From Promethearchaeota archaeon (GTDB lineage Archaea; Asgardarchaeota; Lokiarchaeia; Sigyniarchaeales; SOKP01): 64,000 nt of DNA. The notes beneath the pieces are model-generated. The model saw only the letters and a program-made list of their open reading frames with translations, did not search any database and had not been told where the DNA came from. The translations under genes were made by a program, and so were the position numbers. The DNA is taken from positions 384,001 to 448,000 of the forward strand of contig JAEOUA010000003.1 of the NCBI GenBank assembly GCA_016839555.1, in the 5' to 3' direction. Shown piece after piece: positions 7,595 through 52,723 of the stretch (its first letter is position 1; every line of letters starts with the position of its first letter).

Positions 7595-9661
7595 TTGAAG
7601 CTTATAGATAATGAATTTGCAGGATTTCGAGAGATACACGGATTTTCAAAGCAAGAACTTTTAGATATTAAAAAACAAATCTCGAGATATAAAGACGATT
7701 ATTTAGATGATAATAAAGTAAAAGAATTACTTGAAAATACATTTCCGACAAAAATTTTAACTATATATTATGATTATATTTCAAATCTTGATAAATTTAT
7801 AGAATTTTATCTAATTAACAATAAGGAACCAAGTTTTAAAGAGTGTGAGGATTTTTTTTATTTAAAATCTGATTTAATAAAAGAGATTAACCACATTGCT
7901 ACAAATCTTTCAAATTTAAATTTAAATATTCAAAATACGAAACGTTTTTTTAAAAAAAATGAATATTTACAGAATTATTCTTCAGAAATTTTTGATTTAC
8001 AAGAAAAATTAAATCAATCCCAGCAAGAACTTAAGAATTCGTTAGGCACCAAACCACAGAGTTATCATTATTCTTCCTATTTATTCTATCAAACAAATAA
8101 AATTAAAAATTCTCGCTTCAAATTAAAAGATTTACCAGAGAATTGCTTACAATGGGAAGAGATTTCAGATCTTTTCAATTATTTAAAGAATTATGGCACT
8201 TTGCTAAAATCTAAAGGAATTTTATCCAAAAAGGAAGTGGAAATACAATTTGAATTTAAAATGTTAATTGATTATTTTAATTCATCAGAACAAGTAAACA
8301 AAATTATTGGCAAAGAATTAGTATATCTTTTGTCTCTTAATAATTTTTTAGAAGAATTAGAATATGATGAAAATATAAGCAAGCCGGAAAGAAAAAATAT
8401 AATAGAAAACTTAAAAATATTCATGCAATCAATTATTAAAGACTTTATCATGGATGAATTAACGGATTATATTGAAAAATTAAGAGAAATAGAAAAAAAA
8501 TATAATTTAATCGATAAAGAGGAGAAAGAATATAATTTAAAAGCTTTGGTTGATAAAAAAGTAAGCAATTTCTTACCTAATTTTGTAGATTATTATATAA
8601 AAGAGTTGGAAGAGAATTATAAAATTAAAAGTACTGAGAAAGAACCTGTAAATGAGCTTAATAACCTCATTTTAGAGTATAAAAATAAAATAGAATTATT
8701 TTATAAAAAAATACAAAATTTAAAGGAGTTAATCTCTGAATATAAACTTTTTCTAAGACCTTTTGGCCATATAATAAATAATTATGAAAAAATATTTGCA
8801 TCTCTTTTAGAGGATATAGAAAGAAGAAAGGAAGATTTTGTTTTTTATCTGAAGACTGTTAAAAACGAATGGTTAAAGGATGATTTAAGAACCTTCACTG
8901 AAGGAAAAAGGGATGAAATCAATCAACTACTAGCAAATTATCGAGATAAATTCGCCAAAATATTAAAAGATGATTTTCCGCAGTTTAAAGAAATAGAGGA
9001 TATACTTAATACTTATCAGACGCAAATTATACAAATGAAGGATGAAGTCTATCAGAAATTTGAAGAATATAATAAAAAAAATTTAAATCAAATTCAGATC
9101 ATTAAGCAATGGGAAACAAACTTTAATAGAACAAAACAGCAAGCAAGCTTCCTTTTAAATCAGTATCTTATGAAAATTTTTAAAAATTTTGATAATATTA
9201 TTGAAAAAGAAAATGCTCTTTTTAGAGGACTCTCTGAAATTTCAAAAAAAAATCGGAGAGATCAAGAATTAGCTCTTAATTATGCCCTATCTGGTTATCT
9301 TTTTGGTAAGTTGAGCCAAAAAGAAATAAAAGAACGCATTATTACTCTAAAAGAAAAAATATTGCAATTACAAACTCAACAAAATCTCTATGAATCAGAA
9401 ATCTCTAAATTAGAAGAAGTTCTAGGCGAAAAAATTAAAATACAAGAAGGAATTTCTTCTACAAGAGTACAATGTGCCATTTGCCATAAGAATATTGACC
9501 TTAAAAAGGATAGATTTATTAAATGCCCTTATTGTGGAACATACTTTCATTATTTATGTATTTATTTCTGGCTCTCGGAATATAACAGCTGCCCTGCGTG
9601 CCAGAACGAATTCCTCGATCCTAATACTGACATGTATTATTTCTCAGAACCACTTAGTTAA
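7595..9661 (+). CDS. long helical/coiled-coil protein with C-terminal C4HC3 RING-variant finger (putative E3 ubiquitin ligase)
   Basis: CAIC-x13-CPYC-x4-HYLC-xxx-W-x6-CPAC at the C-terminus. Confidence 0.75.
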   Translation: MKLIDNEFAGFREIHGFSKQELLDIKKQISRYKDDYLDDNKVKELLENTFPTKILTIYYDYISNLDKFIEFYLINNKEPSFKECEDFFYLKSDLIKEINHIATNLSNLNLNIQNTKRFFKKNEYLQNYSSEIFDLQEKLNQSQQELKNSLGTKPQSYHYSSYLFYQTNKIKNSRFKLKDLPENCLQWEEISDLFNYLKNYGTLLKSKGILSKKEVEIQFEFKMLIDYFNSSEQVNKIIGKELVYLLSLNNFLEELEYDENISKPERKNIIENLKIFMQSIIKDFIMDELTDYIEKLREIEKKYNLIDKEEKEYNLKALVDKKVSNFLPNFVDYYIKELEENYKIKSTEKEPVNELNNLILEYKNKIELFYKKIQNLKELISEYKLFLRPFGHIINNYEKIFASLLEDIERRKEDFVFYLKTVKNEWLKDDLRTFTEGKRDEINQLLANYRDKFAKILKDDFPQFKEIEDILNTYQTQIIQMKDEVYQKFEEYNKKNLNQIQIIKQWETNFNRTKQQASFLLNQYLMKIFKNFDNIIEKENALFRGLSEISKKNRRDQELALNYALSGYLFGKLSQKEIKERIITLKEKILQLQTQQNLYESEISKLEEVLGEKIKIQEGISSTRVQCAICHKNIDLKKDRFIKCPYCGTYFHYLCIYFWLSEYNSCPACQNEFLDPNTDMYYFSEPLS

Positions 9662-11602: not shown

Positions 11603-12460
11603 ATGGTTGATTATAAAAACGTATTAAAGACTCTTCAGAAAAGCTATTCTTACGTGGATAAGATTCTTGTGCTTAAGAATAATGGAAAAATAGAATATTC
11701 AACAGATAATTGGAAAGTTAAGGAAGATATTAAGGGCTTTTTAGCGAGTTGGGCTAGCGGAAATGCACAGTTTGTTGTTATGGATGGAGTCAAATATTCA
11801 ATCTTACAAATGGAGCCAGAAAGATTTGTGGGCACAAACAGACAGAAAAAAGGACATTTAATTGGAGCAGCGACTGCGGAAAGAGATAAATATTTAATTG
11901 CTCATATTGACAATAAGGCAAAAGGTTGGATGCATAATGCGTATCCAATGGTAGCTAGAGCAGCAGTTGCGTTGAATGATACGTCTAAATTAAAATACTT
12001 GGATTCAAGCCAAAAACAAGTCAAACCTGGCAAAGACGCTCAAACGGAAAAGATTTCGAAAAAAATAAAAAAATTAGAAGATAAATTCAAGAAAAACCTT
12101 GATAAGGGGAAGAAAGAAAAAGCAATAGAATATGCTAAAGAACTTATTGAAATGGCGAATTCAATTGGAAAAAGTGATGTAGCGGAAAAATATCAGGATA
12201 TAATAGATGAGCTTCTGGGGAAGAAAAAAGAAAAAACTGAAGAACCAATTGAGCAAATGACTCAAATTAGAGCAGACGCTATATCTACACCTAAAGTCAA
12301 TCCAATTATAACCCAAGAAGTTATAAATTTTCTTCAATGGATTAATGATAGGGAAGGATTAGTGAAGTTTGTCGAATATTATCTTCAACAAAATGATCAA
12401 CAAAAAATTTCTGATTTATCAGATATTTATAAAGAACTCTATCGAATAACAACTGAATAA
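11603..12460 (+). CDS. Asgard profilin-domain protein with C-terminal helical extension
   Basis: aa 1-125 match the Loki profilin pattern (GKIEYSTDNW, GVKYSILQ..PERFVGTN...KGHLI); about 160 extra C-terminal residues. Confidence 0.75.
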   Translation: MVDYKNVLKTLQKSYSYVDKILVLKNNGKIEYSTDNWKVKEDIKGFLASWASGNAQFVVMDGVKYSILQMEPERFVGTNRQKKGHLIGAATAERDKYLIAHIDNKAKGWMHNAYPMVARAAVALNDTSKLKYLDSSQKQVKPGKDAQTEKISKKIKKLEDKFKKNLDKGKKEKAIEYAKELIEMANSIGKSDVAEKYQDIIDELLGKKKEKTEEPIEQMTQIRADAISTPKVNPIITQEVINFLQWINDREGLVKFVEYYLQQNDQQKISDLSDIYKELYRITTE

Positions 12461-51577: not shown

Positions 51578-52723
51578 ATGGCAGAAGATGAATCTTTTCT
51601 TAATGCTAAAGCGTTAGTGGTTGATAATGGTACTGGTATTACGAAGAATGGGTTTGCCGGAGAAGATCAACCCCGATCGGTATTTCCCACTCTCATAGGT
51701 TATCCTAAATACGAGTCCATCATGACTGATGTGGAGCATTATACACGAGAATATTACATCGGCGAAGAAGCAATGCAATTAAAAGGTGTTCTTAAATTAA
51801 TGTTTCCAGTAGAGCATGGTATTATTGAAGACTGGACAGCAATGGAGAAAATCTGGCATTATACCTTTTATACGGACTTAAGAGTGGATCCTTCGGAGCA
51901 TCCATGTCTCCTCACGGAAGCACCCTTAAATCCAAGACCAAACCGCGAGAAGATGGCCGAAATTATGTTTGAGACGTTCAATGTGCCGGCTATGTACGTT
52001 GCGATGCAGGCAGTATTATCATTATATGCATCTGGTCGTACAACTGGCTGTGTTATTGATATTGGCGATGGTGTATCCCACGTAGTCCCAATATTCGAAG
52101 GTTTCGCATTAAGCCATGCAATCCAGCGGGTTGATCTGGCAGGAAGAGACATTACTACCTATTTACAACGATTATTACGACAAAAGGGTTATTCCTTTAC
52201 AACCTCCGCAGAGAAGGAGATTGTACGGGACATCAAGGAAAAACTCTGTTATGTAGCTATCGATCCCGAAAAGGAGATGATGCTTTCCAAGAAAGTAGCT
52301 GGAATGGAAAAGAGCTACATGCTTCCTGATGGTGAGACCATTAATGTAGGTGTTGAGAGATTCTTAGCACCCGAATGTTTCTTTAATCCATCAGTGATTG
52401 GAAAAGAATTAGAACCCTTAGATGATATCATTGTAAATGCAATTTCTGCTTGTGATGTGGATCTAAGACGAGATCTCTACAGTAATATCGTGTTATCTGG
52501 AGGCTCTACCATGTTCCCTGGTATTAAAGAGAGATTAACCAAGGAAATTAAGGAACAAATTCCAGAATCCGTTGACGTAAAAATTATCGCCCCTCCAGAA
52601 AGAATGTATTCTGTCTGGATCGGAGGCTCTATTTTGAGCTCATTAAAGACTTTCCACCGAATGTGGATTACCAGGCGTGAATATAAAGAAATGGGACCAC
52701 AAGTTATTCACAGATGCTTCTAA
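51578..52723 (+). CDS. Asgard actin (Lokiactin)
   Basis: [67 protein letters not shown]-terminal HRCF. Confidence 0.97.

Follow-up and report, generated by a model that had tools for sequence, protein, structure and literature searches.

The window analyzed here, a 64-kb stretch of contig JAEOUA010000003.1 from a Promethearchaeota archaeon (positions 384,001 to 448,000; G+C content ~30%), encodes a long profilin. This protein has an N-terminal head with a genuine profilin-family fold and a C-terminal tail that is a separate, mobile, conserved and previously undescribed module. The tail module also occurs on its own, as a microprotein encoded elsewhere in the same genome, and structure prediction supports binding between the two. 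The profilin fold and single-domain Asgard profilins are already known; what is new is a profilin paralogue carrying an undescribed putative pairing module, together with a candidate partner microprotein.

The long profilin gene is an ATG-started open reading frame (ORF) of 285 amino acids (aa) plus a stop codon, and its start codon lines up with the N-termini of homologues (alignment A1). In the AlphaFold2 model the head is followed by helical regions at residues 146-205 and 234-284, in line with the head and two helical additions seen in the first-pass annotation. The parts of the gene, and the Lokiactin gene of the same window, are as follows (pLDDT, predicted local distance difference test score).

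11603..12460, + strand: long profilin, whole gene (ORF translation, >140 homologues; no gene partners adjoining)
11603..11977, + strand: profilin-fold head, residues 1-125 (PDB sequence matches, Foldseek, VIA-align, conservation, charge)
11978..12037, + strand: linker 1, residues 126-145 (poorly conserved, column identity ~0.3; pLDDT <50 at residues 138-144)
12038..12217, + strand: three-helix insert, Lys/Glu-rich, residues 146-205 (AlphaFold2 helices with pLDDT >90; few relatives)
12218..12289, + strand: linker 2, residues 206-229, predicted to be disordered (pLDDT <50 at residues 209-229)
12290..12457, + strand: C-terminal three-helix module, residues 230-285, predicted pairing domain (alignment A2, model, complex prediction)
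51578..52723, + strand: Lokiactin gene (Pfam Actin PF00022, 449 bits), presumed ligand of the head, unlinked to the profilin gene

Profilin head

The head is made up of an N-terminal helix, seven strands (including a three-strand motif at residues 63-90) and a C-terminal helix at residues 109-122. In a phmmer search against the PDB, residues 13-124 match the Odin profilin 5zza_P (E-value: 7.2e-7) and the Thor profilin 7pbh_A (E-value: 9.8e-7), and the head also matches Loki profilin-2 (5zzb_A, E-value: 4.7e-5) and Loki profilin-1 (5yed_A, E-value: 1.2e-4). The AlphaFold2 model, built with 23 family members, has a pLDDT of ~90 across residues 1-125, and its elements follow the order expected of a profilin (N-terminal helix, strands, short helix, strands, C-terminal helix). 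Foldseek places 5zza_P first (E-value: 1.2e-9, target TM score 0.85), followed by other Asgard profilins and then by eukaryotic profilins. VIA-align superposes the head on 5zza_P with a Z score of 18.4 (118 of 119 residues, root-mean-square deviation [rmsd] 1.7 A) and on 5yed_A with a Z score of 18.0; eukaryotic profilins score 13-15, and roadblock, MglB and Ragulator folds 9-11 (maximum 11.2). Residues 1-125 had been noted on first inspection of the DNA to follow the Lokiarchaeal profilin pattern, and both the sequence and the structure searches bear out a profilin.

Conservation was measured on an alignment of 124 sequences, reduced to 36 representatives. The family has a conserved head, a variable linker (mean column identity 0.33) and a conserved C-terminal block of ~55 aa (0.65). 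The best-conserved parts of the head are strands 4-6 (mean column identity 0.73-0.80) and the loop and C-terminal helix at residues 103-122 (0.77). The three-strand motif is a profilin-specific element that touches actin in the Loki profilin-actin crystal 5yee (PMC10933270). This actin-contact motif is present in the head and is the most conserved segment of the family. Because conservation peaks there, the pattern fits a retained actin-type interface, and from homology and the motif we infer that the head binds actin. The head is also basic (net charge +7, isoelectric point [pI] 9.6; family median +10, pI 10.0), and the Lokiactin encoded at 51578-52723 has a net charge of -13. Together with the polybasic linkers of some family members, the basic head suggests that, apart from actin, something else that is acidic may be bound, for instance membrane lipids.

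The long profilin head resembles the characterized Asgard profilins in fold, in detectable sequence homology, in the strand motif KYS...ER...TN..GH and in host lineage. It differs from them in its low identity (~22-25%), its basic rather than acidic character, its failure to match Pfam Profilin and its position in a separate clade. The characterized proteins also lack the linker and the conserved C-terminal module of the long profilin, which is known here from sequence and models. The first-pass annotation had noted that characterized profilins are mostly single-domain proteins. This holds; it does not extend to the order of Lokiarchaeia studied here, in which the long form is universal, and several other profilin fusions exist.

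Tail module and microprotein

The tail is ~55 aa long and is mostly found at the extreme C-terminus. Its consensus is DPxLKxEIExFLxWIxxPxGLxxYIxYYLQQNDxxxISxLAxIYxELxxIF, and it can be recognized by the motif FLxW(I/V)x3-6GLxx(Y/W)I...(Q/E)xN(D/N)...Lxx(I/L)Y...(I/L)F, which residues 230-285 of the long profilin (P0001) contain. In alignment A2, which combines these residues with 48 other sequences, W246 and G252 are invariant and L253, L272 and Y276 are at least 90% conserved. When modelled alone from the 49 sequences, the tail forms a three-helix unit with a pLDDT of 91. No known family accounts for it: Pfam and NCBIfam scans gave chance-level matches only, whether for the whole protein, the head, the insert (seven sequences) or the tail (49 sequences); a PDB profile search with the tail alignment found nothing meaningful; and Foldseek returned zero PDB matches for the tail model. 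VIA-align comparison of the tail with 48,161 chains gave a best Z score of 4.6, to generic helical arrangements of which none is a villin headpiece, although such a weak match does not exclude that fold.

The tail is found in four settings: behind profilin-like heads, alone as a microprotein, behind Ras-family GTPases and, once, between a GTPase and a gelsolin repeat. In the third setting (P0177, P0200 and P0214) the GTPase (PF00071, 93-119 bits) is connected to the tail by proline-rich and zinc-finger linkers, and two such fusions could be placed in genomes (L048, 352 aa; L049, 474 aa). In the fourth (P0222, from the protein database) the gelsolin repeat is borderline, with 20.7 bits against a cut-off of 21.

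The microprotein of this genome consists of the tail module only. It is 53 aa long, is encoded outside the window on contig 4 (209739-209897, - strand; L006:1492-1650), and is 39% identical to the tail. A census was made of 49 genomes from the family of the window's genome that are at least 90% complete. One or two long profilins were found in all 49, and 47 also have a microprotein-sized copy of the tail (a frame of 54-87 codons). Microproteins from 20 genomes are near-fixed in length at 53-55 aa, with the consensus MSxEExQxVEYFLxWIxNGGLxQWIEHFLNQGDExKLRxIKEVYDKIKxVFGF. Four other genomes, three of them closed (L. ossiferum B-35 and P. syntrophicum MK-D1 among these), each have a single long profilin (207-216 aa) alongside a single microprotein (50-54 aa). 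These pairs include NEF87_002646 and NEF87_000990 of Candidatus Lokiarchaeum ossiferum B-35, DSAG12_00584 and DSAG12_03310 of Promethearchaeum syntrophicum MK-D1, and MCF2139023.1 and MCF2140074.1 of Candidatus Harpocratesius repetitus (long profilin and microprotein, respectively), all of which are annotated as hypothetical. Full-text literature searches found no account of the tailed profilin, its tail domain, the microprotein or their accessions, although they may be mentioned in Ponlachantra et al. 2023 (BioEssays) or in the supplements of the 2026 Nature motility paper.

A complex of the tail (alignment A2) with the microprotein (alignment A3) was predicted alongside three controls. The tail-microprotein pair has an ipSAE (interaction prediction score from aligned errors) of 0.78 (0.76, 0.78 and 0.80 in separate runs), and the best of the three controls reaches 0.01. 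The runs share at least 91% of their contacts, and the pLDDT of the partner is at least 87. In benchmarking, 58 of 80 solved complexes and two of 110 mismatched pairs passed the mark applied, a calibration that is approximate here because custom alignments were used; close cousins of a true partner also pass. There is no similar solved complex, which makes it unlikely that the predictor passed by reproducing a known structure. Between the two chains 97-99 contacts are predicted, and the interface is reciprocal, each chain laying its helix 1 on the partner's helix 3. In the tail, helix 3 (I269, L272, Y276 and L279) is predicted to pack on helix 1 of the microprotein (V9, F12 and W15), and helix 1 of the tail (V240, F243 and L244) on microprotein helices 2 and 3 (I25, L37, I40 and Y44). 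These contacts use the conserved hydrophobic positions of the family. The model supports tail-microprotein binding, which it does not by itself show.

Pairing of this kind has known parallels. In microProtein-type regulation, small single-domain proteins pair with the same domain in larger proteins, as do Id with HLH proteins and the CARD-only proteins. The arrangement in Lokiarchaeia is similar in that a tiny stand-alone copy of a putative pairing domain coexists, genome by genome, with larger carriers, and in that heterotypic pairing is predicted. The tail module is not homologous to the Id/HLH or CARD domains, and the microprotein could equally be an independent homodimer.

Distribution, ancestry and gene context

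A word-indexed search found 143 homologues of the long profilin (156-499 aa, most of them 202-256 aa), and an exhaustive HMMER search found 109 among representatives at 50% identity. In a survey of 400 Asgard genomes, a hidden Markov model (HMM) of the tail matched 153, all in the order of Lokiarchaeia to which the window belongs; the match in the window's own genome has an E-value of 1e-25. This order includes L. ossiferum and P. syntrophicum MK-D1. Leaving aside the genome of the window, the tail is present in 152 of 153 genomes of the order (133 of 134 in family f1, 1 of 1 in f2, 14 of 14 in f3 and 4 of 4 in f4) and in none of 246 Asgard genomes of other orders and classes. Of the two helical additions described in the first-pass annotation, the tail is thus strongly conserved in homologues; the middle unit is an insert shared by few relatives and is not a feature of the family. 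With a head that matches the profilin fold and a C-terminal part that is conserved, neither of the two computational findings that the annotation named as fatal to its proposal was made.

A quick maximum-likelihood tree of 65 profilin-like heads places 24 of the 28 tail-bearing heads in a single clade of 26 rows (Shimodaira-Hasegawa-like approximate likelihood ratio test support 85), apart from the canonical short profilins and from fusions of ~400 aa with TrmB-type regulators. The other two rows of this clade are short forms that are apparently truncated, and four tail-bearing heads fall outside it. The window protein belongs to a clade of 13 rows with 98% support. The tree suggests that the head-tail fusion had a mostly single origin and that the long profilin is an old paralogue of the canonical short profilins within one order of Lokiarchaeia. 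L. ossiferum reportedly has three profilins, and one of these co-precipitates with Lokiactin (PMC13716822; bioRxiv 10.1101/2025.11.30.690169).

Profilin-like heads in Lokiarchaeia are also fused to TrmB-type regulators and to GTPases. One TrmB-type fusion is encoded by the same genome (L004:487-1749, - strand, contig 7; 420 aa, with a profilin-like head and, by eye, a TrmB-like winged-helix region). Its gene adjoins that of an actin paralogue (L004:2352-3233, - strand), and the tree assigns its head to another clade than the long profilins. In both this protein and the long profilin, a profilin-like head has been reused at the N-terminus of a longer Lokiarchaeial protein. The TrmB-type fusion differs in its clade, in its C-terminus, which by eye resembles a winged-helix DNA-binding domain, and in its place beside an actin paralogue, whereas the long profilin gene stands alone. 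P0148 (390 aa) and P0165 (323 aa) have what by eye is a small-GTPase-like N-terminus followed by a profilin-like domain and no tail, apparently another way in which Lokiarchaeia couple GTPase and profilin. A profilin-like domain and a degenerate tail module also occur together in a 728-aa protein (L050:91-2277, - strand; G203 contig 47), which has a zinc ribbon at its N-terminus and a large helical region at its C-terminus.

The assembly from which the window is taken is 3.74 Mb in 12 contigs and is 92% complete; close relatives of its proteins are recorded as coming from Promethearchaeota or Lokiarchaeota archaea. Misassembly or an artefact of gene fusion was considered as the source of the long profilin and ruled out, since closed genomes and hundreds of independent contigs show the same architecture. 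Upstream of the gene is a divergent LysE-type transporter gene, and downstream are convergent genes of the aldehyde dehydrogenase (proA-like) and amino acid kinase (proB-like) families (all assigned by Pfam). By eye, TATA-like runs can be seen in the AT-rich 5' spacer and T-tracts downstream of the stop codon. Two kb upstream of the profilin gene, at 7595-9661 (+ strand), is a gene for a 688-aa, largely coiled-coil protein whose C-terminal RING-type zinc finger scores 26 bits with PF13639 (cut-off 27.3). This protein is a candidate eukaryotic signature protein of the E3-ligase-like kind.

A four-gene cluster (zinc-finger protein, long profilin, membrane protein, TFB) is conserved in families f2 and f3 alone, and the window locus lacks it. 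At these loci (L009-L012, including those of L. ossiferum and MK-D1) the zinc-finger protein is C2H2-like and ~166 aa long, and the membrane protein is 233-253 aa long. The zinc-finger neighbour has no significant match in the genome of the window, and no relationship between it and the zinc fingers found in GTPase fusions could be demonstrated. In a metagenomic relative (L046), the long profilin gene divergently adjoins a gene for a 169-aa Arf/Ras-family GTPase (L046:3147-3656, - strand), and a gene for a second, Arf/RagA-like GTPase of 314 aa lies nearby (L046:948-1892, - strand). As small GTPases are numerous in these genomes, this adjacency may be due to chance.

Proposed mechanism and alternatives

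The proposed model for the long profilin, which we hold to be somewhat better than an even bet, is an actin-binding head joined by a flexible linker to a homotypic pairing or docking tail. The basic head most likely still binds monomeric Lokiactin through its three-strand motif. The linker would be flexible and variable in length, and in this species and a few relatives would have expanded into a charged three-helix spacer. The ~55-aa tail would then act in one of three ways. Tail pairing could dimerize the profilin, bringing two actin-loading heads to one hub. The tail could couple the profilin to the microprotein, which would serve as a cap or regulator. Finally, in a few genomes, the tail could couple the profilin to a Ras-like GTPase. 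The earlier suggestion that a multi-domain profilin might tether actin handling to a partner or cellular site gains a candidate partner in the 53-aa microprotein and its predicted pairing; MIT/TPR homology is not supported, and the middle domain lies outside the conserved design.

In eukaryotes, formin FH1 regions, Ena/VASP and WASP recruit profilin-actin via polyproline. To our knowledge, no formin or WASP homologue has been reported from this lineage. Since polyproline is reportedly not bound by Loki and Odin profilins (PMC8410842), its role in recruitment could, by analogy, be taken over by a built-in docking module. Both arrangements would bring profilin-actin to a defined partner or raise local valency. 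The likeness is one of analogy only, as a polyproline-binding groove is used in the eukaryotic systems and a covalently attached helical docking module in the long profilin.

Several observations weigh against this model. Pfam Profilin (PF00235; gathering threshold 25 bits) does not match the head even at an E-value of 10. Two canonical profilins of the same genome (133 and 126 aa; contigs 4 and 12) also fall below the threshold, with 24.1 and 16.5 bits, so PF00235 is a poor judge of Asgard profilins; set beside these scores, the missing match makes the head the most diverged profilin of the genome. A head this diverged could have changed its partner. The canonical paralogues are acidic (pI 4.6 and 5.6), unlike the strongly positive head. 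In the full-length AlphaFold2 model, the tail helices (within residues 234-284) have a pLDDT of ~70 and the predicted template modelling score is 0.48. Because the two chains of the predicted complex are homologous, its pass may reflect general self-pairing, homodimer and heterodimer not being separable. The gene neighbourhood differs among the window and three other loci (L008, L044 and L046), with no conserved context. Large frames that fuse the tail to other domains occur in two of the 49 census genomes, and just one of these is a GTPase fusion. As GTPase fusions are rare, GTPase coupling cannot be the general function of the tail.

The strongest alternative, which is unlikely, is that the head has been repurposed off actin. 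It might, for example, be a basic platform that binds membranes, lipids or GTPases, as do its roadblock/longin fold relatives, with the tail supplying the dimerization for which roadblock proteins use their central helix. The missed Pfam match and the basic charge of the family agree with this, and two canonical acidic profilins remain in the genome for the actin role. The next-best structural matches of the head are roadblock, MglB and Ragulator proteins, its fusion to TrmB-type regulators and GTPases indicates functional plasticity, and the tail too is fused to Ras-like GTPases. Against this alternative, eukaryotes are known to have basic profilin isoforms that have kept actin binding. Profilins far outscore roadblocks as matches to the head (Z scores of 18.4 and 11.2; Foldseek E-values of 1e-9 and 1.7e-3). 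The three-strand motif, which replaces the roadblock dimerization helix and contacts actin (PMC10933270), is not only present but is the best-conserved part of the family, and the motif TN..(K/G)GH is common to the head and to the Odin profilin that was co-crystallized with actin.

A second alternative, which we consider improbable, is that the tail is itself an actin-binding element, a headpiece-like binder of F- or G-actin, and that the microprotein is a small free peptide that likewise binds actin. On this view the shared module would be a label of actin binders and not a means of pairing them. Eukaryotes have small three-helix actin binders at protein C-termini, the villin headpiece being one. 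The module sits on actin regulators, in all cases on profilin heads and in one case with a borderline gelsolin repeat, and Akil et al. 2020 (PMC7444086) proposed that Asgard gelsolins gain further actin-binding sites from C-terminal additions. However, the module also occurs on Ras-like GTPases that have no actin-binding domain, and the interface predicted between tail and microprotein is homotypic, confident and specific. The conserved positions of the tail are the hydrophobic heptad positions of this interface, and a conserved charged surface patch is not evident.

The middle domain had been called MIT/TPR-like in the first-pass annotation. The insert is predicted to contain three helices (residues 146-167, 171-187 and 191-205), all with a pLDDT >90, and as a predicted up-down-up three-helix bundle it has the size of an MIT domain (~60-75 residues). 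An archaeal Vps4-like ATPase has an MIT domain on which residues 146-207 can be superposed (2w2u_B; Z score 8.8, rmsd 1.6 A, 62 residues, 19% identity), and the insert also matches Vta1 (2rkk_A, Z score 8.4), although VIA-align Z scores below ~13 between helical bundles may reflect merely a common arrangement. De novo designed three-helix bundles match it equally well or better (8upa_C, Z score 9.1). Pfam MIT (PF04212) has no match in the seven insert sequences, a PDB profile search with the insert alignment found no MIT chain and nothing meaningful, and hhalign gives a 1% probability against the MIT domain of the genome's own Vps4. The resemblance is that of a generic three-helix bundle, with no sequence or profile similarity behind it. 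MIT identity was rejected at the sequence level, and MIT homology is unlikely. The insert is restricted to P0002-P0006 (57-86% identical, 299-321 aa), P0062 and the fragment P0146, with the hydrophobic pattern of helices 2 and 3 kept. The four congeneric species in the census have frames of 205-246 aa, compared with 286 here, and linker 2 varies in length and sequence across the family (alignment A1). In our reading the linker has grown, in this lineage only, into a charged helical spacer, and the insert lies outside the conserved family design. That it is a true MIT domain, recruiting the profilin to ESCRT-III filaments and so coupling actin to membrane scission, is very improbable even though the 2w2u_B domain is ESCRT-III-bound and the genome encodes a Vps4 with an MIT domain, given that designed bundles tie or win, that the profile comparisons fail and that nearly all family members, congeneric species included, lack the insert.

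The model of an actin-binding head with a pairing or docking tail can be extended, on a decidedly speculative footing, to a docking code specific to Lokiarchaeales. Pairing of the modules would link Ras-like GTPases, a membrane-proximal, actin-loaded basic profilin and gelsolin-type proteins, and the microprotein would be a competitive cap or switch. If true, this would be a prokaryotic and independently invented counterpart of the GTPase-adaptor-profilin-actin pathways of eukaryotes.

Current accounts of actin regulation in Asgard archaea centre on single-domain profilins and gelsolins. The present analysis identifies a universally conserved, order-specific profilin paralogue, a new small candidate interaction module and an equally conserved microprotein, and the proteins of B-35 and MK-D1 provide cell biologists with named targets in cultured strains. 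The tail and microprotein suggest a lineage-specific way to dock or dimerize an actin regulator. In Lokiarchaeia the profilin fold serves as a module to build with, a finding of relevance to the pre-eukaryotic rise of multi-domain cytoskeletal regulators.

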